DNA from: an uncultured Candidatus Saccharibacteria bacterium
GTDB lineage: Bacteria > Patescibacteriota > Saccharimonadia > Saccharimonadales > Saccharimonadaceae
Assembly (NCBI GenBank): GCA_963535375.1
Contig: CAUSVT010000004.1
Coordinates: forward strand, 41,719 to 105,718
Length of the DNA stretch: 64,000 nt
Reading direction: 5' to 3'
The position numbers and the translations under genes were made by a program. Under the pieces are notes generated by a model. The model saw nothing but the letters and a program-made list of their open reading frames with translations. It ran no database searches and had not been told where the DNA came from. Below, one piece after another: positions 4,467 through 14,212 of this stretch (positions are counted from its first letter, which is position 1; each line of letters starts with the position of its first letter).

Positions 4467-5174
4467 TTACACTTCCTCTAACATCGCACCCGTTCGCCTC
4501 ACCAGCTCCATCGTTCGACGGTAATTCTGCCGAGTCGGACCAATCACGCCGATGTAACTGCGATCACTAAACGATGAACGAAACTTACTGATGATCAGGG
4601 TCGCGCCGCTGGCTTTACCGATTGGGTTCTCACTACCAATGAACACGTTGAGCGGTTCATTGGGCGCAGCTTCAACTAGCCAGGGCTCAATATTGTCAAT
4701 CAGTCTGGCGATAGCCTGAACGTGATTGCCTTCAATAAACTCTGGCTGAGAAAATAGCTGCGTCATACCATTCATGTACAGATGATCACCAAACGAGGCA
4801 AAACCAAAATTACCCGTCAGCTCAACCAGGCTGTCAACCGCGCTGCGGATGGCCCTGTCAGATTTATCAACGTGCGAATTAACATGTGCCTCGATCGCCC
4901 TCGCACTGCGATCGATACCACTTGGTAGTTCAGTCATTTGAGCGGCAGTGATACCATTGACATAAAACCGATAGCCTTTGTCAGTCGGGATACGGCCGGC
5001 ACTGGTGTGTGGTGCCTCAATAAATCCCATCTCCTCGAGCTTGGCCATTTCGCTGCGGATGGTAGCGCTGGACACACCAAATAATTTGGCGAGTGTCACA
5101 CTGCCAACTGGTGCGGCAATTTCAGCGTACTGTTCAATGATAGTGGCCAAGATGGCCTGCTGGCGTTCGGTCAT
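4467..5174 (-). CDS. hrcA: Heat-inducible repressor HrcA, compact 235-aa form
   Basis: [16 protein letters not shown]...[37 protein letters not shown] is the HrcA winged helix. I placed the start at the ATG at 5172-5174 because the GTG at 5201 lies inside the CIRCE/-10 region. Confidence 0.85.
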
Positions 5175-5221: not shown

Positions 5222-6654
5222 GTTGTCTTTTGCTTGGCACGGCGTGCAGTCGTGCGGGTGTGCGTGAACTGCCTGGCTGCATCAGATGATAGCATCAGGA
5301 TGATCGTGATATTGATGCCGATGAACGCCAGAGTGCCAACGCTTGTCCAGGTGATTTTACCGATAGTCAAGGTGAATGAGGTTGCCAGCACTGACAGGCT
5401 CGACAATATCATCAAGAGTAGCCTATCTTTGTTAGAGCCGCGGAACGTACCTCGTGACAGCACAGCTGTTACTAAGATCCAGCCCGCGCTCAAACTCAGC
5501 ACTCCTCGGATCGTCCACTCCGCTCCTGTGGCGGCCACAGAAGTGTCCAGGCCTTCAACGATAAAGTCCTGGGTTGTCTGATGCAACAATTCGTCAAACA
5601 GCAAAAAATCAAACAAGGCGCCCATCAGGACAATCATCATAGCCAAGGCCGTAAACAAAATAGCAAACGATATTTGCGGCGGCCGGCGATTCCACAGCTG
5701 CTGCAGCACCGTGTCGTGTTCTTCCGTGGAGACTGCATATTCATGAGCTGTTGCGTCCAGAATAACCCCCGCTCTCTCGGCAATTATCTGCTGATTTGCC
5801 ACGACTGCCGCCAGTTCCAAGACTGGTAAGTCACCGTCAGTCTGGATGCTGTCACCACCGCCATTGCGCGAGTGATAACCCGTCGAAAAGTCTTTCAAAT
5901 TTGTCACTGCCACCTGTGGTGTATGTTCGGTGACGGTACTCACAATATAGTCACGCTCGATGTCAGTATTTTCATCAATTTTATGAGTAACTTGCAGAGT
6001 AAACAATGACAATCCAACACTTTTGTCGTATGTCCCTGCTGCCAGCCAATCGACCTGATGGCCGCCAGGCAGCAACCAGCCCTGAGGGCAGCGCCAAAAC
6101 CGCACGTGATGACGTTTACCGGGGCTGCCATCTACTTCTTGCTGGTAGGCAAAGTCTTGGCGACGGCCAAACAAAAACAGCGATGACACAGGAGCTGAAG
6201 CATAGCTCCTGCCAGTCAGCGTAGAAAAAATTATCTTCCAAGCTGACCGAACGGTGATTTCATCAGCAATCGTCCAACCAGCATCAATCATCGCTTGATG
6301 CAGCTGTGCTTCTGAACCTCTGAGCGCCACGTTGACTGGATCACCCAACAATCCATCAGCAGTCCGCGTACGACCGATGAAATAGTTCGGTACATACAGG
6401 CTACTTAAAATACGGTGCAAGCGAGGCAAGGCCAAGTAGGCCATGATGACCCAAAACAGCGCAAAAAACGCCACCAGCCACCAGCCACCAGAATACCAAC
6501 CCTCACGCCAAACCAACCAACCAAACCAAAATGAAGCCAAACCGGCCAACAAGAAAAACGCTTGGTCGATCAGCGCAGACAATGACCACGGCGAACGACG
6601 CAATGCCGAAGCTCGTTTTTGGATATGGTCAGAAACCTGATGACGATAACTCAT
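5218..6654 (-). CDS. Polytopic membrane protein with an LssY-C-like domain (function unknown)
   Basis: 478 aa with several hydrophobic segments. The central stretch LGDPVNVALRGSEAQLHQAMIDAGWTIADE resembles the LssY C-terminal family as I remember it. Confidence 0.5.
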   Translation of the reverse strand: MSYRHQVSDHIQKRASALRRSPWSLSALIDQAFFLLAGLASFWFGWLVWREGWYSGGWWLVAFFALFWVIMAYLALPRLHRILSSLYVPNYFIGRTRTADGLLGDPVNVALRGSEAQLHQAMIDAGWTIADEITVRSAWKIIFSTLTGRSYASAPVSSLFLFGRRQDFAYQQEVDGSPGKRHHVRFWRCPQGWLLPGGHQVDWLAAGTYDKSVGLSLFTLQVTHKIDENTDIERDYIVSTVTEHTPQVAVTNLKDFSTGYHSRNGGGDSIQTDGDLPVLELAAVVANQQIIAERAGVILDATAHEYAVSTEEHDTVLQQLWNRRPPQISFAILFTALAMMIVLMGALFDFLLFDELLHQTTQDFIVEGLDTSVAATGAEWTIRGVLSLSAGWILVTAVLSRGTFRGSNKDRLLLMILSSLSVLATSFTLTIGKITWTSVGTLAFIGINITIILMLSSDAARQFTHTRTTARRAKQKTT

Positions 6655-7373
6655 ACGATATTATTATACTGTCGAATATTTTCTAAAAGCCTCCTTGCGG
6701 CCAAACGGGCTTCATCATCTTGCTGGTTAAACAAGTCACCTCGTTCAATGATGTCATGACAGACACGGACCGCTCTATTAAGGTCATCATTAATAATAAC
6801 ATGATAATACGGTACAGAAAGTGCTTGTGTCATTTCTTTGACAGAACTAGCCAGCCGTTTCGGCCATTCAGCGTGAAATGCTTCCTCGGTAGTATACCGA
6901 CTTTTCAGGCGAGTCAGCCAGGTTTCGTAGTCGGGAGGTATGATGAAAATTGAAATACTTTGCGGAGCTAAAATCTCATATTCAGCAGCGCCCTGCACAT
7001 CAATATCAGCGATGACTGTTTTGTTTTGTTCATAGGCCGCCCGAATCTCAGCCGCCGAGGTACCATAGACTGTGCCATGAACAAATTTAGCCTCAATAAA
7101 TTCCTGATTTTTTAACATTTGTGCAGCCGTGGTCGAGTTGATGAAATGGTAATCAACACCATCAACTTCTGGGCGATTATTGTTGATGCGCGGCGCACGT
7201 GTTGTGTGCGAAACGATGCTACTAAAATCTGGAAGCTGCAATAATCGCTTTTTGATAGTGTCTTTACCGGCGCCAGAAATGCCGGTCAGTAGGGCAATCT
7301 TGGCTTTCTTGATCAGCTCGACGGTTGGCTCAGTTGGTTGATAATCAGCAATCAACCGCTCCAATTCGTCCAT
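6651..7373 (-). CDS. gmk: Guanylate kinase
   Basis: It has the P-loop GISGAGKDT, SHTTRAPR, DGVDYHF and YGTS motifs. I chose the start at M31 (7371-7373) to avoid overlapping the upstream gene, whose stop is at 7378. Confidence 0.88.
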   Translation of the reverse strand: MDELERLIADYQPTEPTVELIKKAKIALLTGISGAGKDTIKKRLLQLPDFSSIVSHTTRAPRINNNRPEVDGVDYHFINSTTAAQMLKNQEFIEAKFVHGTVYGTSAAEIRAAYEQNKTVIADIDVQGAAEYEILAPQSISIFIIPPDYETWLTRLKSRYTTEEAFHAEWPKRLASSVKEMTQALSVPYYHVIINDDLNRAVRVCHDIIERGDLFNQQDDEARLAARRLLENIRQYNNIV

Positions 7374-7377
7374 GCGT

Positions 7378-8607
7378 TTAGCTGTTCCTACGTTTGATGA
7401 TCCAAAGGATACCTGCACCAATACCGACAGCTGCGAGTGAAGCGAGCGGCCAAACATTGTCACCAGTGTCAGCTAAGTAGCCTTCGCCAGTTGGCTTTGT
7501 TGGCTGAGCAACTGGTGCGCCAGGATTGGTTGGCTGAGCAGGAGTTGGCGTCGGGGTTGGTGTTGGTGGAGTTGGTGGGGTCGGTGGAGTGACTGGCGCT
7601 TCCTTAACGGTCGCAGTACTGATGAAGCCATTGTTCATAGCCGCCGCAATGCGAGCACCGTCGCTAGACATCGCAATAGAAGACCAAGCACCAGTTGCGG
7701 CTGTAGTCTGCTCTTCCCAGGTAGCACCTGAATCGCTTGAGACATATATCACACCGCCAGTGACAGTGGCAGCCAATTTAGTGCCATCAGCAGAGCTGGT
7801 GATGGCAGTCCAAGCACGGTTGCCAGAACCAGCTTGTTCTTGCCAGGTCACACCCGAGTCGCTTGAGGTGTATACTGCACCGCCATTGACAGTCGCGGCG
7901 AGCTTAGTACCATCGCTTGACCCAGTGATGGCAGTCCAAGCACGGTTGCCAGAACCAGCTTGTTCTTGCCAGGTCACACCCGAGTCGCTTGAGGTGTATA
8001 CTGCACCGCCATTGACAGTCGCGGCGAGCTTAGTACCATCGCTTGACCCAGTGATGGCAGTCCAAGCACGGTTGCCAGAACCAGCCTGCGGTGTCCACGT
8101 TGCGCCTGAGTTACTGGAAGTAAATACTGCGCCGTTTTTAGCTGTTGCAGCCAGTTTAGTACCGTCAGCAGAGCTGGCAATCGAAGTCCAATCAAAAGAA
8201 CCGCCGGATATACCATTGCTTCTCCAAGTCTGGCCTCTGTCGTCTGAGGTTAAAATGTAACCACCCCAGTGATACACACCAGCAAGTTTAGTACCGTCAG
8301 CAGAGCTGGTGATTGCAATCCAAGCACGAGAACCAGAATCAACTTGCTCTGTCCAGGTTTTACCTGCATCATCTGAGATGTAAGCTGAGCCGCCAGTCAT
8401 AGTCGCAACGAGCTTGGTACCGTCAGCAGAGCTGGCAATTGAGGTCCAAGCGCGACTACCAGAACCAGTCTGTTCTGTCCAGGTAACTACCTGTTTTGCG
8501 TTAGCTGACTGACTAAACACCGCAACCACCGCAGCGATTACTACCAAGCATCCCGCTTTAGCAGCGCGGGCTATCGTTCTTTTTCTATTACCCCAGAGCG
8601 ACCCCAT
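7378..8607 (-). CDS. Cell-wall-anchored BNR/Asp-box beta-propeller surface protein (8 blades, PT linker, LAxTG signal)
   Basis: It has a signal peptide and repeats of SSDSGVTWQEQAGSGNRAWTAITGSSDGTKLAATVNGGAVYT. A PPTPPTPPTPTPTPTP linker follows. The C-terminus has GYLADTG, a hydrophobic segment and KRRNS. A strong SD AAAAAGGAG precedes the ATG. Confidence 0.82.
   Translation of the reverse strand: MGSLWGNRKRTIARAAKAGCLVVIAAVVAVFSQSANAKQVVTWTEQTGSGSRAWTSIASSADGTKLVATMTGGSAYISDDAGKTWTEQVDSGSRAWIAITSSADGTKLAGVYHWGGYILTSDDRGQTWRSNGISGGSFDWTSIASSADGTKLAATAKNGAVFTSSNSGATWTPQAGSGNRAWTAITGSSDGTKLAATVNGGAVYTSSDSGVTWQEQAGSGNRAWTAITGSSDGTKLAATVNGGAVYTSSDSGVTWQEQAGSGNRAWTAITSSADGTKLAATVTGGVIYVSSDSGATWEEQTTAATGAWSSIAMSSDGARIAAAMNNGFISTATVKEAPVTPPTPPTPPTPTPTPTPAQPTNPGAPVAQPTKPTGEGYLADTGDNVWPLASLAAVGIGAGILWIIKRRNS
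7801..8085. repeat. Perfect 126-bp in-frame tandem repeat (2.26 units, one propeller blade per unit)
   Basis: Positions 7801-7926 are identical to 7927-8052. Positions 8053-8085 repeat the first 33 nt. Confidence 0.95.
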
Positions 8608-8660
8608 ATAAATAATCTCCTTTTTATTGTTTTATGACAATGTCTAATATAATCACTGCC

Positions 8661-8694
8661 AGTATATCACGATAGCGCTTACGTTAGCAAGCAT
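8661..8694 (-). promoter_or_regulatory. Promoter region of the BNR protein gene, with a motif shared with 3913-3942
   Basis: On the minus strand, TTGCTA (8685-8690) is followed by 18 nt and TGATATACT (8661-8669). The blocks ATGCTTGC / ACGT / AGCGCTAT also occur upstream of the GH16/BNR gene. Confidence 0.55.
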
Positions 8695-8716
8695 ATTTTG
8701 CCAAGTATTGACGACT

Positions 8717-9178
8717 TTATAATAGTTCACGCAAAATGGCTTGCCAATCAGGAAATTCATCTGAGCCAAACCGGATCAATCGCCCTGAAAAGTCGCCCGC
8801 ACCGTTTGCTGTCCGATCATCGATCAAGATATCACCCTGGCTTAGATGCTTGACCGACGAAAAAACAACCTTGCGAAAGAAAATATTTTCCCGGCCGTCA
8901 CCACCAAAATACTTCTTTACCCACGCCAATTTATCAGCCAACGCCGTCGGATTTTCCCATGGTGATGACGACAGAATATATAGATCATATTTTTCTTTCA
9001 AAGTATCAACTGCCTCAAGAGCCCCCGGCATCGGATCCATCAACGCAAAAACACCCGGAATATTGTCATACTCACCCGCAAACTTCTCGAGCATCTCAGG
9101 CGAAACCCTCGTCAAAGCCGACGTAAAGTCGACCAGTACGCCATCCATGTCGATGTAAATAATCGGTTTCTTCATCAT
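8717..9178 (-). CDS. 5'(3')-deoxyribonucleotidase (HAD superfamily, NT5C-like)
   Basis: MKKPIIYIDMDGVLVDF carries the HAD motif I (DxDGV). The size of 153 aa fits. Its start overlaps the lepA C-fragment stop. Confidence 0.72.
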   Translation of the reverse strand: MMKKPIIYIDMDGVLVDFTSALTRVSPEMLEKFAGEYDNIPGVFALMDPMPGALEAVDTLKEKYDLYILSSSPWENPTALADKLAWVKKYFGGDGRENIFFRKVVFSSVKHLSQGDILIDDRTANGAGDFSGRLIRFGSDEFPDWQAILRELL

Positions 9179-10140
9179 TAATCCCTCTTTAGCATCACTG
9201 TAAACGCTTCTGACGGAATGTCAACCTTGCCGAAGCGTTTCATACGCTTTTTACCGCGGGCCTGTTTGGCGAGGAGCTTCTTTTTACGACTAACATCGCC
9301 GCCGTACAGATAGCCGGTAACATCCTTGCGGTAGGCACCGATATTTTCTCGGGCGATAAACCTGCCGCCAATCGCCGCCTGCAACGCCACTTCAAAGCTC
9401 TGGCGCGGCACCACCTCTTTGAGCTTTTTGACGATTTCGCGGCCCAAGCCTGGCGCCTCCGAGCGGTGGCACATCACACTGAGAGCATCGACCATTTCGC
9501 CTGCTACATAGAAATCAACGCGTACCAAATCTTCCGGCTGATAGCCCGCTAGCTCATAATTAAACGAGCCATACCCGCTAGTCACCGACTTCAATTGATC
9601 ATAAAAATCCGTCAGCAAATTGGCCAGCGGCGCCGTAAACGAAATCAGTGCCCGCTCGTCGATGTAGCTGAGGTTTTTCTGCCGACCACGCTTGGCAACA
9701 ATCAGCTGAATCACCGCACCAATATAATCTTGTGGCACTACAATTTCACCGTCAATCCACGGCTCGCGAACCTCGGTAATTTGTGCTGGGTCAGGTAGTT
9801 CGCTGGCCGACTTAATATCCAACTCCTCGCCATTGGTGAGGCTGACTTGATAATCAGTACTCGGATTGGTGACGATGAGATCCAAATTATACTCGCGCTC
9901 CAGCCGCTCACGAATGATATCCATATGGAGCAAACCAAGAAAGCCGATCCGCACACCATAGCCCAGCACCGGCGAATTTTCCGGCTCAAACTGCAGCGCC
10001 GAATCACTGAGACTCAACTTCTCAATCGCCTCCTTCAGGTCATTATAATCTTCGTTAGACACCGGGAAGAAGCCCGCATAGACGAAGGGCTTGACTTCTT
10101 TGTAGCCAGGGAGGGGCTGGACAGTCATTTTTACAGTCAT
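9178..10140 (-). CDS. lepA: Elongation factor 4 (LepA), C-terminal fragment (domains III, V and the LepA-specific CTD)
   Basis: QPLPGYKEVKPFVYAGFFPVS...LSLSDSALQFEPENSPVLGYGVRIGFLGLLHMDIIRERLEREYNLDL is collinear with E. coli and B. subtilis LepA from the domain II/III linker onward. The fragment begins MTVKMTV. Confidence 0.9.
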   Translation of the reverse strand: MTVKMTVQPLPGYKEVKPFVYAGFFPVSNEDYNDLKEAIEKLSLSDSALQFEPENSPVLGYGVRIGFLGLLHMDIIRERLEREYNLDLIVTNPSTDYQVSLTNGEELDIKSASELPDPAQITEVREPWIDGEIVVPQDYIGAVIQLIVAKRGRQKNLSYIDERALISFTAPLANLLTDFYDQLKSVTSGYGSFNYELAGYQPEDLVRVDFYVAGEMVDALSVMCHRSEAPGLGREIVKKLKEVVPRQSFEVALQAAIGGRFIARENIGAYRKDVTGYLYGGDVSRKKKLLAKQARGKKRMKRFGKVDIPSEAFTVMLKRD

Positions 10141-10148
10141 TTCGTTAT

Positions 10149-10157
10149 ATTATAGCA
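10149..10157 (-). promoter_or_regulatory. Extended -10 box (TGCTATAAT) 8 nt upstream of the lepA C-fragment ATG
   Basis: The minus strand reads aaaTGCTATAATataacgaaATG. Confidence 0.65.
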
Positions 10158-10200
10158 TTTTACAGAGATACCGTCGAATCACCGTGTTAGTTTATATTCC

Positions 10201-10752
10201 TCACGGAGTATACGACGTGTGCATATCAACTCGCCTCGAAGGTGAGGCTAATGGATACATATAGGGCAGTTCTCTGTTTGGCACAATATCATAATATCGA
10301 CGATACCGGTCGTCATTAAATTCAGACTCATTACCCTTAACGAAATGTAGCGCTGGATGGTTCCTCGAAGTAGTACCACGCTTCACCAATAATCCAACAT
10401 GCGACCACGTTTCCGACGTGACGTCTGGCTCCAGCCCGTACTTAGCAAGCAACAAGGCAATGATAGGTTTGCGGATGACCGAGGTAGTTCCTGGTTCAAG
10501 ACCAAGCGCAGGAGTTACCTCCTCAAAGAAATATTCCAACATGGACGTGCCAGCCCGATATTCAGACGGAGCATCACGAAACAGCATGCCAGCGAAGCAC
10601 GCCTTTTTGCCAAGCCTCGCATAACTAAGCCGCGCCATGGGCTTATCCGCATTTTCCCCAAACATAATTCTTTCTACTCCAGACGGCGCAGTTCGCGCAT
10701 GAGCTGGAACGCGGTCTCCATTGGCAAACGTAATTGGCGGTAACTCATTCAT
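10201..10752 (-). CDS. Hypothetical protein (183 aa), second gene of the insert splitting lepA
   Basis: Long ORF on the same strand as lepA. TATTAT lies 8 nt upstream of its ATG. I recognised no motif. Confidence 0.6.
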   Translation of the reverse strand: MNELPPITFANGDRVPAHARTAPSGVERIMFGENADKPMARLSYARLGKKACFAGMLFRDAPSEYRAGTSMLEYFFEEVTPALGLEPGTTSVIRKPIIALLLAKYGLEPDVTSETWSHVGLLVKRGTTSRNHPALHFVKGNESEFNDDRYRRYYDIVPNRELPYMYPLASPSRRVDMHTSYTP

Positions 10753-10905
10753 AGCTAATCATAATATTTCTTACTGTCACCGTATCGCTCGTCCCTTTGA
10801 GGACAGCGATAGTGCCGTCAAGCAACGACTCGACAGCTATCTGTGACAGATTATCAGATTATACTATACCATCTTAAGTTAATTATGTCTATGAAATAAA
10901 CGATT

Positions 10906-11595
10906 CTACTGATTAGCATACCGCTCGATACGCTTAGCCCGCAGTGTTAGCATGTCAGTCAAGTCCTGCAGATATACTGTGTACTGCTCAACGGTCTGAG
11001 GCAACGGTGACGATTGGAAATTATCAAAATCTGTTAGTATGTTAACTTGGTATTCGTCATCAACAAAATCTTGCAACAAGAAAAAATCGACATAGCCCCG
11101 AAAATCACCAAACCACTCAAAAAAGTCACCATAACGATCAAAAACATCAGCCAGCGGACTGTCTTCACCCCGATACCAGCGGGCAATACATTCTAACGTT
11201 AGGTCAAATCGATCACCAATTTTGCGATGCCAGCCTCTCGCACGATTGATGGTTTGCGTACCGCCGCGTAATTCGCTGGGGAAGACAATCTCTGAACCGA
11301 TCGTCCAACCAACATCCTCTATTATCGTCAAAACATCTTGCGACATCTTCTCAACAAGTAATTTATTACGCTTCCAAGGTCTAAAAGTAGCCGCCATATT
11401 ATCGCTCGAAACAGGAATCTGACACCGACCGTCACTGGCTATTAAGTAGGCTCCCTGATCCAGCATAGTCAGTTGACAGCCATCAGGTAGCGGTTTAGTC
11501 CATAGCTCAGCGTGATAGCGTTTTAACGTCAGGCTGTGCTGATCTGGATCTCTACCATGAGCATCTTGACGACAATCAAACCAAGGATCAATCAT
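10906..11595 (-). CDS. Hypothetical protein (229 aa), first gene of the insert; resembles a widespread uncharacterised family (possibly DUF6994, from memory)
   Basis: The ATG lies 2 nt after the lepA N-fragment stop. The motifs RDPDQHSLTLKRYHAELWTKPLPDG, INRARGWHRKIGDRFDLTLECIARWYRG and FGDFRGYVDFFLLQDFV look like a conserved family I cannot name with certainty. Confidence 0.65.
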   Translation of the reverse strand: MIDPWFDCRQDAHGRDPDQHSLTLKRYHAELWTKPLPDGCQLTMLDQGAYLIASDGRCQIPVSSDNMAATFRPWKRNKLLVEKMSQDVLTIIEDVGWTIGSEIVFPSELRGGTQTINRARGWHRKIGDRFDLTLECIARWYRGEDSPLADVFDRYGDFFEWFGDFRGYVDFFLLQDFVDDEYQVNILTDFDNFQSSPLPQTVEQYTVYLQDLTDMLTLRAKRIERYANQ

Positions 11596-11597
11596 CG

Positions 11598-12557
11598 CTA
11601 GCCTATATACTTCTTCAACGTCACCGTATCACCCACCCGCGCTTCACGCGTGGTTTTGAGGTTGGTGACAATGTAACCAATTTCACCAGTGTCCAGCGAT
11701 GGGTCGGGGATCATGCTAGGACTAAGATGACCAACTTCCAGCGCCAAGCCGTTCGCACCAGTTGCCATCATGTGAATCGCTTCGCCTTTTTTGATCTGGC
11801 CGTCAACCACCCTGACATACAAAATCACCCCGCGATAATCATCATAATAACTATCGAAAATCAGCGCCCGCGTCGGAAGATCAGCCAACACAACATCAGG
11901 ATGCTCGACCGCCAGTGGCGAAGTCGGCGCCGGAATTCGCTCAACAATCGCCTCCAAAACTTGATTAACATTCTGTCCAGTTTTAGCGGAAATATGAATA
12001 ATCTCACTCTCATCGCATCCCAGCAAATTTATCACCTGCTTGGACACCCGCGGCACATCGGCGGCTGGCAAATCGACTTTATTGAGCACCGGAATAATTG
12101 TCAAATCTTGCTCCATCGCCAAGTACACATTCGCTAACGTCTGCGCCTGAATACCCTGACTGGCGTCAACCACCAACACCGCCCCCTCACAAGCCTGCAA
12201 CGAGCGACTAACTTCGTAACTAAAATCAACGTGGCCAGGCGTGTCGATGAGATTGAGATCGTACGGTCCAGCTGGCGGCAATCCTTCCGGTGAATCGATA
12301 GCCCTGTCGCTGGCGCTGCCTGCGACATTCGATTCAGAGGTGGCGGTTGCCGCTGGCTGGCGGTAATGGTACTTCATCCGCACCGGCGCCAGCTTAATGG
12401 TAATTCCTTTCTCACGCTCCAAATCCATGCTATCCAACAGCTGCGACTTCATCTCGCGCTTCTCCACTGTCCCCGTCATCTCCATCATCCGATCAGCCAG
12501 CGTCGACTTGCCGTGATCGATGTGAGCGATGATGCAAAAATTGCGGATAGCTTCCAT
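11598..12557 (-). CDS. lepA: Elongation factor 4 (LepA), N-terminal fragment (GTPase domain and domain II)
   Basis: The motifs [12 protein letters not shown] (G1), DTPGH (G3) and NKVD (G4) are present. The ORF ends ...[16 protein letters not shown]-stop. Its start overlaps the murJ stop (ATGA). Confidence 0.92.
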
Positions 12558-14212
12558 CAGCGTCGTTTCCCGTCCAAACGCACAAACAAGAACTTATTCA
12601 CTTGCCTGATGATCGGCTCAACTTCTGGTAATTTGAGCATCCGCGACATCAGACCATAAGCCAAGAAACTCACACCAGCGATAATCATAAACTTCGGAAA
12701 GGCTGAGAAGAAGCTGCTGTCGCTCTCGCGAAATGGCAACACCTGTAACATCAAATAACAAACGATTCCTGCTACCGTTGATGCCACGATCATACGCAAC
12801 ACCGCCGCCACGAACGAAGCGTCAAACAAGTGTGGAATTCGTTTTTCTAACACAACAAATAAAATCACTACCTCAATGACAGCCACTGTCGACTGTGCCC
12901 ACGCCAGTCCATAGGCGCCCATTTTCAGCACCATTGATAAGACAATTGCCAGTACTACATTCAAGCCAATAGCCGCAAAAGAGATGTTTAGCGGTGTTTT
13001 TGTGTCCTGTTGTGCGTAAAATGCCCGAGCCGCCATGTGGTAGATGGTACGGAACAAAATCGCTACGACCAGACATCCCAAAATACCCGCCATCATCGGG
13101 TCTCCGGTGTTGCGGATAAAGTGAACAACATACCCTCGCGTGAAAAATGTTATGACGGACACTGGCAAGGCCATCCAAATGATCACCCGTAGCAATTGGC
13201 GCAAATCTTTTTGAAACAAATCCTGGCGATTATTGCCCAAATGCTCAGTCAACTGAGGAAACGCTGCATTAGAAACCGCCACACCGATGAGGTTGATCGG
13301 CATCATGTGTAGCGTTAAAGCCTGCTGATAAGCACGAATAACACCATCACCCAGTCGAGAAGCCAAGTTCACTTCCACGAGGCTAACGGCGTAGTCCATA
13401 CCCTGGTCAACCGAACGCGCTGGCAGCAAACTCAACACTTTGCGAAAACCGCGGTTACGCCAGTGCAGCTTAAACTCATAGTCAAAGCCCAAACCGACCA
13501 ACCCGACAGCACTAACGATAAGCTGCATCACCGAACCAAGCACCACACCCAGCGCCACGCCCATGATGCCGCCCTCAAAGATCTGCCAACCAAAGATATT
13601 GATACCATTCGTAAACCAGACTGTACCGATGATGATACCAATATTATAAATCATCGGCGCGAGAGCATAAAAGGTGAAACGCCCCACCGCTTGCTGGATA
13701 CTAGCGATGACGGCAGCGATTGCAAAGATAAATGGGTTGACAGCGATCACCCGCATCATGCTAACTGCCAACGCATGACCTGATTCACTCATTCCCGGCG
13801 CAATGAAATAGCGCATCAATGGATCAGCAAAGATGATGATGAGCACACTAGCAGCCAGGGTGGTTAGTGCCATGAAATTGATCATGCTGGAGCTAATCTG
13901 CCAAGCTGACTGCTTATTTCCCTTGGTCCACCGCTCATTAAACACCGGGATGAAGGTCACACTTAGCGCACCCGACACCAAAATAGCAAACATAAAGTCC
14001 GGCACCATGAACGCCGCAGTGTACGCGTCAAGACCAACAACATAACCCGCCAGCCCTGCTTCTTTGTTGGGCATATATGCAGCGTTCAGCAAACGGTCAC
14101 GCCAAAATCCCAGCAGACTACTCAGCAGCATAGATCCTGCCAATAGACTGGCTGCCAATTTCACGGTCAGCCGCTGATTCACTTTGGTGACTGCTTGCCG
14201 AACTCGCCCCAT
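12557..14212 (-). CDS. murJ: Lipid II flippase MurJ (MviN family)
   Basis: 551 aa and polytopic. The N-terminus [18 protein letters not shown] and the overall MOP-family pattern fit MurJ. Confidence 0.85.

Follow-up and report, generated by a model that had tools for sequence, protein, structure and literature searches.

The window, a stretch of 64,000 nucleotides from an uncultured Candidatus Saccharibacteria bacterium, carries lepA, the gene for the translational GTPase EF4, in two pieces on the reverse strand. The N-half (11598..12557, 319 aa) comprises the G domain and domain II, and the C-half (9178..10140, 320 aa) comprises domains III and V and the LepA C-terminal domain; ORF analysis found 0 internal stops in either. 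Searches against Pfam gave matches to GTP_EFTU (E 2.3e-54) and GTP_EFTU_D2 (E 2.3e-09) in the N-half, where the G1, G3 and G4 motifs of translational GTPases, including NKVD, precede domain II. The C-half matched LepA_C (PF06421, E 9.5e-43), EFG_C (E 5.1e-21) and, weakly, EFG_III. A low-complexity insert in the β2-β3 loop of the G domain (12270..12362, reverse strand) ranges in length from 0 to ~75 aa among relatives. On the NCBIfam lepA model TIGR01393 (595 positions), the N-half covers positions 1-277 and the C-half positions 279-594. Their scores, 399.9 and 435.5 bits, are both below the equivalog cut-off of 533.9; neither half is an equivalog as a single polypeptide, and the model is covered by the two jointly. 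In alignments with E. coli LepA (3cb4), the N-half reaches residue 277 and the C-half begins at residue 283; with 5imq, the C-half aligned to residues 286-601. At the junction, the N-half ends after GDTVTLKK with a 4-aa non-LepA tail (YIG plus the stop), and the C-half begins with a 7-aa non-LepA head, MTVKMTV, followed by QPLPGYKEV. These results bear out a preliminary description of the locus, which had placed the cut at the domain II/III linker, with the G motifs and domain II on one side, domain III onwards on the other, both halves free of internal stops and only a few linker residues missing; approximately five appear to have been replaced.

The N-half is preceded by murJ (12557..14212, reverse strand), encoding the lipid II flippase (MurJ, E 3.7e-66), and the C-half is followed by a gene for an nt5c-like 5'(3')-deoxyribonucleotidase (8717..9178, reverse strand). 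The stop codon of murJ overlaps the N-half start by 1 nt in the sequence TGATG, which corrects the ATGA overlap given in the preliminary description; the overlap it had noted between the C-half stop and the nt5c start is indeed there (TAATG, 1 nt). The juxtaposition of murJ and the N-half, overlap included, is kept in 80 related loci and in Southlakia epibionticum ML1 (Se ML1), and it is probably through this murJ context that the N-half is transcribed and translationally coupled. For the C-half, a candidate promoter was found at 10149..10177 (reverse strand), consisting of a -35-like TCGACG, a 17-nt spacer and TGCTATAAT (10149..10157), a consensus box separated, as previously reported, by 8 nt from the ATG at 10140. 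A TATAAT box was found 6-13 nt upstream of the C-half start codon in all 42 complete loci, where it spans 16 unrelated classes of upstream sequence, and it is accompanied by TGn in 38 of the 42. The same promoter architecture occurs at 14 long ORFs of the window, the C-half included. Since the -10 box is only 8 nt before the ATG, the C-half mRNA is predicted to be leaderless or nearly so, with a transcription start site deduced from the sequence alone. The proposal that the halves are separately promoted holds for the C-half, which has its own promoter, and not for the N-half, which appears to be translationally coupled to murJ.

The gap between the two halves is 1,457 bp long, as originally measured, and contains two ORFs on the same strand as lepA. 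The first cargo gene (10906..11595, reverse strand) starts 2 nt past the N-half stop and encodes a 229-aa DUF6994 protein (E 2.5e-74). The DUF6994 family is predicted to have an HNH/beta-beta-alpha-metal, type IV restriction-like fold, although it lacks the catalytic His (PMC11701544). The cargo protein had no sequence match in the PDB and its AF2 model was of too poor quality for use. The second cargo gene (10201..10752, reverse strand) encodes a clade-restricted ORFan of 183 aa. Searches of Pfam, PHROG, PADLOC and NCBIfam returned no match for this protein; it matched only 8 protein clusters among 5.8 billion, and its low-confidence AF2 model was likewise too poor for use. Upstream of it are a promoter-like site (10863..10891, reverse strand; TAGACA, 17 nt, TATAGT, with TG) and a structured 110-nt leader (10753..10862, reverse strand), predicted to form two hairpins closed by a stem (-41.9 kcal/mol, z -5.3). 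No Rfam family was found for this leader, which is an optional element, present or absent as an indel and missing in approximately half of the related loci.

In 80/80 species-representative loci, the cut in lepA follows GDTVTLKK, and the gaps range in length between 908 bp and >6 kb. The best 120 protein homologues of the N-half are all 294-363 aa long and include no full-length LepA (0/120). An uninterrupted lepA allele of this lineage was found neither in the 80 species loci nor among these 120 best protein matches. Loss of one half was not seen in any locus or genome examined, both halves being present wherever the sequence passed the gap. The split is also present in the closed assemblies CP007496 and CP040011 (both TM7x) and in closed Se ML1, and misassembly can be rejected because these three genomes carry it. 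The split is thus an old trait across the sampled oral G1 relatives, comprising at least 80 species, and not a recent event in this genome. The preliminary description had seen an operon that was later interrupted; the interruption is real, whereas its timing is not recent. It had also raised a second, intact lepA elsewhere as a concern. No second copy was found in the window, and PF06421 occurs once in the whole-genome table of closed Se ML1, so the exclusion of a second copy covers the window and that one closed genome. Our literature search found no paper describing a two-piece lepA.

Full-length EF4 could in principle be restored from such a locus by an intron, a split intein, ribosomal bypassing or DNA excision. 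Interrupted genes that are restored by excision are exemplified by the skin element in B. subtilis sigK, fractured genes with split inteins are known (PMC2677866), and bypassing is known from T4 gene 60 (bioRxiv 10.1101/2022.08.31.505936). At the lepA junctions, the N-half tails (3-8 aa) and C-half heads (4-7 aa) both vary with the cargo. They are too short and too variable for intein halves, and no intein domains were found in the window's gap, so a split intein was rejected. A group I or II intron was rejected because the Rfam search of 8500..13000 gave no intron match at E up to 1 (the sole match, at E 0.59, was snoRNA-like) and the boundary sequences differ by cargo type. A skin-like excisable element was rejected since no recombinase domain was found in the window's two cargo proteins or in the scanned cargo representatives, and no direct repeats were found bracketing the insert. 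Moreover, gaps of 0.9 to >6 kb with unrelated boundaries cannot share one splicing or bypass signal, and, were the halves rejoined, the C-half would have no need of its conserved promoter and start codon. We therefore regard restoration of a full-length chain as highly improbable.

The content of the gap differs between strains. The gaps of the 80 loci, 0.9 kb to >6 kb in length, hold 67 clusters of cargo proteins in mosaic order. The first gap gene is nuclease-like in 35/80 loci, encoding DUF6994 in 15 and T5orf172 (GIY-YIG clan) in 20, and DUF6994 occupies other gap positions in further loci. Most cargo genes encode ordinary accessory enzymes, transporters and membrane proteins, mainly NUDIX, MazG, nitroreductase, GrpB, SDR, glycosyltransferase and ABC transporter genes. 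An anti-phage defence island was rejected, as PADLOC matched none of 12 cargo proteins and the cargo is mostly of the kinds just listed. The sequence of the N-half tail co-varies with the first cargo gene. One cargo cluster, c28, shows 97% nucleotide identity between loci whose murJ genes are only 72% identical, and identity along the locus is mosaic, with blocks of 100% alternating with blocks of 86-90%. Comparison of these sequences clearly points to horizontal transfer of the cargo. A fixed locus, mosaic content and lateral exchange, the marks of a flexible island or recombination hotspot, are all found here; the site is hypervariable, and the 1.46-kb insert of the window is one cargo among many alternatives. 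Natural competence with homology arms of ~1 kb has been demonstrated in this clade (PMC10633639).

To determine how selection acts on the two pieces, we estimated dN/dS, which was 0.087 for the N-half (81 sequences) and 0.020 for the C-half (35 sequences), at dS of ~0.7-0.9. The identity of the C-half is 95-100% in most relatives and 87% in one (L064). Both halves are under strong purifying selection. In Se ML1 the two halves belong to "core" families, unlike the gene that separates them. Alternatively, the halves might be what is left of a non-essential gene in decay, or the split an artefact of assembly. The host genomes are strongly reduced, lepA is dispensable in E. coli (PMC4245954), and both halves were scored non-essential by Tn-seq in Se ML1. 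Against decay, there are 0 internal stops or frameshifts in the 81 N-halves and 35 C-halves at this level of dS, dN/dS is 0.02-0.09, and start, stop and promoter signals are conserved. Against an artefact, the split occurs in the three closed assemblies and in 80 independent species-level assemblies. The selection and conservation data refute the pseudogene or artefact reading, to which we assign next to no probability.

In a sister lineage of Saccharibacteria, lepA is also split, with variable cargo between the pieces, but the cut is at the domain I/II linker. The order there is a 183-aa G piece, cargo and a 407-aa piece from domain II to the CTD, in which the II/III linker is intact. A type I R-M system lies upstream of the C piece. 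In locus L090 the C piece is absent within 10 kb of the G piece, and in L105 it adjoins hrcA. A close relative of this lineage, L106, has a contiguous lepA. Given the different cut and the contiguous gene in L106, the two fissions are independent.

The separate expression signals of the two halves could also indicate that they have diverged in function, the N-half acting as a stand-alone ribosome-associated GTPase and the C-half as a separate ribosome- or tRNA-binding factor, each maintained for a reason of its own and possibly independently regulated. The far stronger conservation of the C-half is consistent with this, as is the location of the sister-lineage C piece, which may be far from its G piece (>10 kb in L090, beside hrcA in L105). 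The higher dN/dS of the N-half may, however, come partly from its variable loop and linker segments. In addition, neither half was lost in any locus or genome examined, and changes relative to intact LepA are limited to a few junction residues. Tn-seq reads in the two halves of Se ML1 lepA fell in parallel (T2/T0 0.67 and 0.70), and those in the intervening cargo gene rose (1.37), though these ratios come without statistics, lie inside the broad range of non-essential genes and are a weak hint. The non-essential score itself is as expected for lepA and is no positive proof of function. Collectively, we consider functional divergence of the halves unlikely.

Together, these results suggest that lepA in this clade of oral G1 Saccharibacteria (Nanosynbacter and Southlakia) is a stable gene in pieces whose two chains reassemble as EF4, an interpretation in which we have good, though not full, confidence. 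In this reading, the surface linker that joins domains II and III would have received an ancestral insertion, which replaced about five of its residues, gave the N-half its stop codon and equipped the C-half with a promoter and a start codon. The GTPase and domain II would then be made through translational coupling to murJ, and domains III and V and the CTD from an extended -10 promoter on a leaderless mRNA. We infer that the two polypeptides form a working EF4, most likely by rejoining non-covalently, on or off the ribosome. Because the halves are so highly conserved, they could serve as fixed homology arms in naturally competent hosts, and the space between them may thereby have become a flexible island in which cargo is gained, lost and swapped between lineages by recombination. 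The proposal that a mobile gene of the nuclease type founded the split is weak, since the HNH-like nature of DUF6994 is a prediction, its catalytic His is lacking, and most cargo is non-nuclease. A broader version of the reassembly reading is possible, though we hold it only tentatively: the covalent link from domains I-II to III-V-CTD would be dispensable in vivo and would have been exploited at least twice, with lepA as a landing pad that swaps foreign genes by natural transformation between two ultra-conserved homology arms. With separate promoters, the cell could also adjust how much of one chain it makes relative to the other, and might thus gate EF4 activity.

Few bacterial proteins are as conserved as EF4, yet its role is still debated. 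A two-chain EF4 under strong selection would indicate that I-II and III-CTD are separable modules, and would offer a natural fragment-complementation system for studying the coupling between GTP hydrolysis and the C-terminal domains. TM7x, N. lyticus ML1 and S. epibionticum ML1, all carriers of the split, can be cultured and are naturally transformable, so the halves can feasibly be fused, deleted or tagged. The locus is also a hotspot for accessory genes that has the halves of one gene as its flanks, and such a hotspot has arisen two times in sister lineages, each time at another linker. For practical use, the gap offers a natural locus for strain typing and a candidate tolerant insertion site for engineering. 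Because lepA models serve as single-copy markers and the halves are below the TIGR01393 cut-off, completeness estimates and annotation of Saccharibacteria can be distorted.

Compared with single-chain EF4/LepA (3cb4, 2ywe, 5imq), the two-piece protein has all domains and motifs at 50-57% identity, with about five linker residues replaced. It differs in being made as two polypeptides, each scoring below the cut-off, and in its variable low-complexity G-domain loop. Split protein genes in a reduced genome are known from Nanoarchaeum equitans. As there, the host of the split lepA is a symbiont whose genome is strongly reduced, the cut follows a domain boundary, and the two parts have been kept. 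Unlike in N. equitans, the lepA parts stay linked with a mobile-cargo hotspot between them, and two sister lineages have split the gene independently, each at a different linker. In Aeromonas phage Aeh1, mobE, a free-standing homing endonuclease gene, divides nrdA (PMC3045599; reviewed in PMC2988022). In both cases, a conserved gene is interrupted by an insert that supplies a stop and a start, and the fragments are separately translated and probably reassemble into an active protein; the nuclease-like first gap gene in 35/80 lepA loci is a further likeness. Both lepA fragments keep intact frames with their own stop and start, as expected of a gene in pieces. In contrast to Aeh1 nrdA, lepA is split in a cellular genome, the split is fixed across the clade (empty sites in 0/80 species), and the gap holds variable, multi-gene and mostly non-nuclease cargo. 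Being only 3-8 aa long, the lepA junction peptides cannot be interaction domains derived from a mobile genetic element, as they are in Aeh1 NrdA. Like flexible genomic islands, the lepA gap has a fixed position, mosaic content, horizontal exchange and flanks usable as recombination arms. Unlike in those islands, the flanks are the halves of one gene, and each variant must provide that gene with its stop, promoter and start.

Within the window, lepA is encoded by two open reading frames on the minus strand. The N-half (11598..12557, 319 aa) matches GTP_EFTU and GTP_EFTU_D2, and the C-half (9178..10140, 320 aa) matches EFG_III (weakly), EFG_C and the LepA-specific C-terminal domain. When aligned to the NCBIfam equivalog for lepA, a model of 595 positions, the N-half reaches position 277 and the C-half covers 279-594; each half separately missed the curated cut-off, and the two combined cover the model. 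On solved LepA structures the break falls between E. coli residues 277 (end of the N-half) and 283 (start of the C-half), at the domain II/III linker as the preliminary description had proposed. The -10 box it placed near the C-half start is also there, as an extended -10 element (TGCTATAAT) 8 nt upstream of the ATG. The halves do lie 1,457 bp apart on the same strand, but the gap is not empty; it is filled by two minus-strand genes encoding a 229-aa DUF6994 protein (10906..11595) and a 183-aa protein, ORF183 (10201..10752). The upstream murJ (12557..14212, minus) overlaps the N-half start by 1 nt in TGATG rather than by the ATGA first reported. The claimed overlap between the C-half stop and the start of the nt5c-like gene (8717..9178, minus) exists, with the sequence TAATG and a length of 1 nt. 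No second lepA-like sequence was detected in the 64-kb window. The G domain carries a low-complexity insert of ~30 aa in its beta2-beta3 loop (12270..12362, minus); across 81 related N-halves this insert is 0 to ~75 aa long, and it is missing in the close relatives L022, L057 and L064. The downstream junction varies: nt5c lies ~600 bp further from the C-half stop in loci L003, L004 and L023 than in the window, and TM7x, a cultured type strain, has guanylate kinase in its place. Beyond nt5c, a 409-aa protein (7378..8607, minus) with tandem repeats of ~42 aa (..SSDGTKLAATVNGGAVYTSSDSGVTWQEQ..), a stalk rich in PT and a membrane anchor at its C-terminus is the neighbourhood's least conserved stretch between close strains, with 76-88% nucleotide identity in blocks.

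Among relatives, the II/III split is widely distributed and of long standing. Of 5.8 billion proteins searched, the 120 that best matched the N-half (80-97% identity) were all 294-363 aa long and included Ca. N. lyticus entries. Scanning GTDB with a single genome for each species gave 80 loci with N-halves 74-99% identical, and the C-half followed after a gap of 908 bp to ~5.9 kb in every locus reaching far enough; in the remaining loci either the gap runs beyond the flanking sequence retained (up to 6 kb) or the contig is too short to span it. The split is also present in two independent closed assemblies of the cultured TM7x (CP007496 and CP040011) and in the closed genome of Ca. Southlakia epibionticum ML1 (Se ML1), where the order is MviN/MurJ, SEML1_0727 (G domain and D2), a 687-nt hypothetical gene and SEML1_0725 (EFG_III, EFG_C and LepA_C) (PMC10633639 Tables S1 and S2). 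The preliminary description had looked to relatives for conservation of the split, and the 80 loci, both TM7x assemblies and Se ML1 are all split; misassembly, its other concern, is excluded by the closed genomes. The LepA C-terminal domain occurs once in the whole-genome table of Se ML1 (PMC10633639), indicating that this organism has no intact backup lepA, so that the second intact copy considered at the outset was found neither in this closed genome nor in the window. The main text of PMC10633639 does not mention lepA, and our literature searches found no published description of a split lepA. A C-half search against 50%-identity representatives returned chimeric or partial proteins as nearest matches and others at ~50% identity; as a means of dating the split, it gave no more than the existence of intact LepA in other Patescibacteria (P0130). 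Four candidates for further independent C-half-only proteins (P0126, P0219, P0264 and P0268) were partial gene calls or lay on 1-kb contigs and were left out of the count.

Sequence comparison indicates that both halves are functional genes under selective maintenance. In all-against-all comparisons of 81 N-halves and, separately, of 35 complete C-halves, the median dN/dS was 0.087 for the N-half and 0.020 for the C-half (median dS 0.9 and 0.7), and none of these sequences contained an internal stop. Pseudogene decay, in which a broken gene would be eroding, is excluded by these results, and the halves are intact as originally described. In most loci the C-half protein keeps 95-100% identity, L064 being lower at 87%, and it does so even next to a MurJ that has fallen to 58%. 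The N-half always extends through GDTVTLKK and then ends in a tail of 3-8 aa that varies with the first cargo gene, and the C-half always opens with a head of 4-7 aa (M..ITV-like) followed by QPLPGYKEV. TATAAT was found 6-13 nt upstream of the C-half start in all 42 complete loci (41 perfect, 38 with TGn), within 16 unrelated classes of upstream sequence. Each cargo variant must therefore supply, and does supply, a stop for the N-half and a promoter and start for the C-half. The short spacing between TATAAT and start implies that the C-half mRNA would be leaderless. Among the window's 68 stop-to-stop frames of 150 codons or more, 14 long ORFs, the C-half included, have TATAAT 6-10 nt upstream of the start (for example at 5174, 6654, 16943, 22228, 33048 and 56089). 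The C-half start is thus of a normal type for this organism, suggesting that leaderless mRNAs are common in it.

The two halves could in principle be rejoined by an intein, an intron, bypassing or excision. This is very unlikely, given N-half tails of only 3-8 aa that change with the cargo, C-half heads of 4-7 aa, a C-half promoter and start conserved in 42/42 complete loci, no flanking direct repeats and nothing above chance in an Rfam scan of the lepA region. In Se ML1, transposon sequencing found both halves non-essential, as lepA is elsewhere (PMC10633639). Normalised reads (T2/T0) dropped in parallel for the halves, to 0.67 and 0.70, and rose to 1.37 for the gene between them; this pattern is suggestive only. 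We consider it unlikely that the two halves have taken on separate functions.

The gap between the halves is a hypervariable cargo site that turns over through recombination and transfer. The 80 loci contain 343 cargo ORFs in 67 clusters, mostly on the lepA strand and in mosaic combinations. Families represented are T5orf172/MUG113 (GIY-YIG clan), DUF218, three NUDIX groups, MazG/dUTPase-like, nitroreductase, GrpB, peptidase S51, SDR, GT4 glycosyltransferase, nucleotidyltransferase, ABC transporter and luciferase-like monooxygenase. One cargo protein of 950 aa combines PolyA_pol and Schlafen AlbA_2, and several clusters of large soluble or multi-pass membrane proteins match no family. None of 12 cargo proteins tested had a PADLOC match, so the gap is an island of general accessory genes and not of defence genes, and the relatives' cargo proteins scanned against NCBIfam gave no match. 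The gene for the 950-aa protein is 97% identical in nucleotide sequence between L016 and L026, two loci at which murJ is 72% and the N-half 75% identical; transfer of cargo between lineages is clear. Comparison among the window's close relatives shows stretches of 100% identity alternating with stretches of 86-90% along the whole locus, the pattern expected from frequent homologous recombination. Natural competence with recombination via ~1-kb arms has been demonstrated experimentally in this clade (PMC10633639). In L078 and L007 the T5orf172 gene itself is absent, but the tail and the initial ~7-11 nt usually found ahead of it are kept, visible scars of cargo loss.

The window's first cargo gene begins 2 nt after the N-half stop and encodes a full-length DUF6994 protein. 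Pfam curators assign this family a beta-beta-alpha-metal core (HNH-like, type IV restriction-like) in which the catalytic histidine is replaced (PMC11701544). IMG/VR held no close relative, distant relatives occurred on a single phage record and on four plasmids, where the neighbouring genes were uninformative, and a profile search against the PDB gave chance matches only. ORF183 is an ORFan matched by only eight protein clusters in the whole database. Neither protein had a match in PHROGs, PADLOC or NCBIfam, and the AF2 models were too poor to use (pLDDT 37 for DUF6994 from a single sequence, 49 for ORF183). ORF183 is preceded by a TGnTATAGT promoter and a 110-nt leader (10753..10891, minus), which is predicted to form a pair of hairpins enclosed by a shared stem (-41.9 kcal/mol, z -5.3), has a fold far more stable than those of shuffled sequences and matched no family in the Rfam scan. 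The leader is an optional indel, present in about half of the loci carrying ORF183 and removed by a ~100-nt deletion in the others; because it is absent from half of the loci, no consensus fold was obtained. The DUF6994 gene and ORF183 each occur without the other in some loci, and are independent modules.

A distant Saccharibacteria LepA fragment used as query retrieved mostly 403-429-aa proteins with domain II, EFG_C and LepA_C and without the G domain, several annotated 'translation elongation factor 4 [Candidatus Saccharibacteria bacterium]'. In this sister lineage, the C pieces begin M..KALIFDSYFDDYRG at the I/II linker, read straight through the II/III linker and have TGnTATAAT 7 nt upstream of their ATG. 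In L085 and L087 the G domain is a separate ORF of 183 aa, located 2.7 kb (L085) or 2.5 kb (L087) upstream of the C piece, and the stretch between the two encodes a surface-type protein of 857 or 787 aa. In L081-L084 and L090-L095, a type I restriction-modification system, unknown genes and a truncated serine recombinase lie upstream of the C piece, and the G piece lies over 10 kb from it; that of the L090-type island was not found within 10 kb. The truncated recombinase N-terminus (RFGYTRVSTEEQ...) is directly upstream of the C piece (~7600..7900 in L081, ~9600..9900 in L090), adjoins the restriction-modification operon and looks like a mobile-element remnant inside the sister lineage's lepA gap. 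At the related locus L106, lepA is contiguous (6108..7885) and its product 82.5% identical to that of L085; its sole interruption, a 1-nt frameshift within a GGGGTTTTCCC run, reflects either an error in sequencing or an inactivation of very recent date. The sister lineage also includes lepA pieces of 248 aa; the one in L105, the single locus examined for them, proved to be a scaffold-gap artefact. The window's LepA is ~75% identical to both L085 and L106 and 57% to an intact Patescibacteria LepA. Since neither lineage is broken where the other is, and outgroups carry intact genes, the I/II and II/III fissions are derived and independent. The I/II linker of the N-half (~11886..11924, minus), which is where lepA of the sister lineage is broken, has a 10-20 aa in-frame indel among relatives, and the sister-lineage protein P0313 has a 20-aa insertion in its II/III linker. 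These indels suggest that both linkers tolerate insertions.

The two separately encoded and separately signalled halves jointly hold every LepA domain. We propose that the N-half is translated through coupling to murJ, that the C-half is translated from a leaderless transcript and that the two chains would associate to give EF4 activity. In EF-G-type factors the I-II block and the III-V-CTD block move as rigid units, and reassembly of the two chains is plausible because the break falls in the surface linker between these blocks. The split probably began with a mobile-gene insertion; this is the weakest step of the proposal, and we count in its favour a nuclease-like first cargo gene in 35 of the 80 loci.

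Split lepA would provide a translational GTPase made naturally of two chains, in organisms amenable to genetics, at a locus that forms a genomic island flanked by the two halves of one gene. Its closest analogue is nrdA of phage Aeh1, a 'genes-in-pieces' arrangement involving a homing endonuclease (PMC3045599). In contrast to Aeh1 nrdA, lepA is a cellular gene, its split is fixed across a clade, its gap carries variable multi-gene cargo, and the same gene has been split twice.
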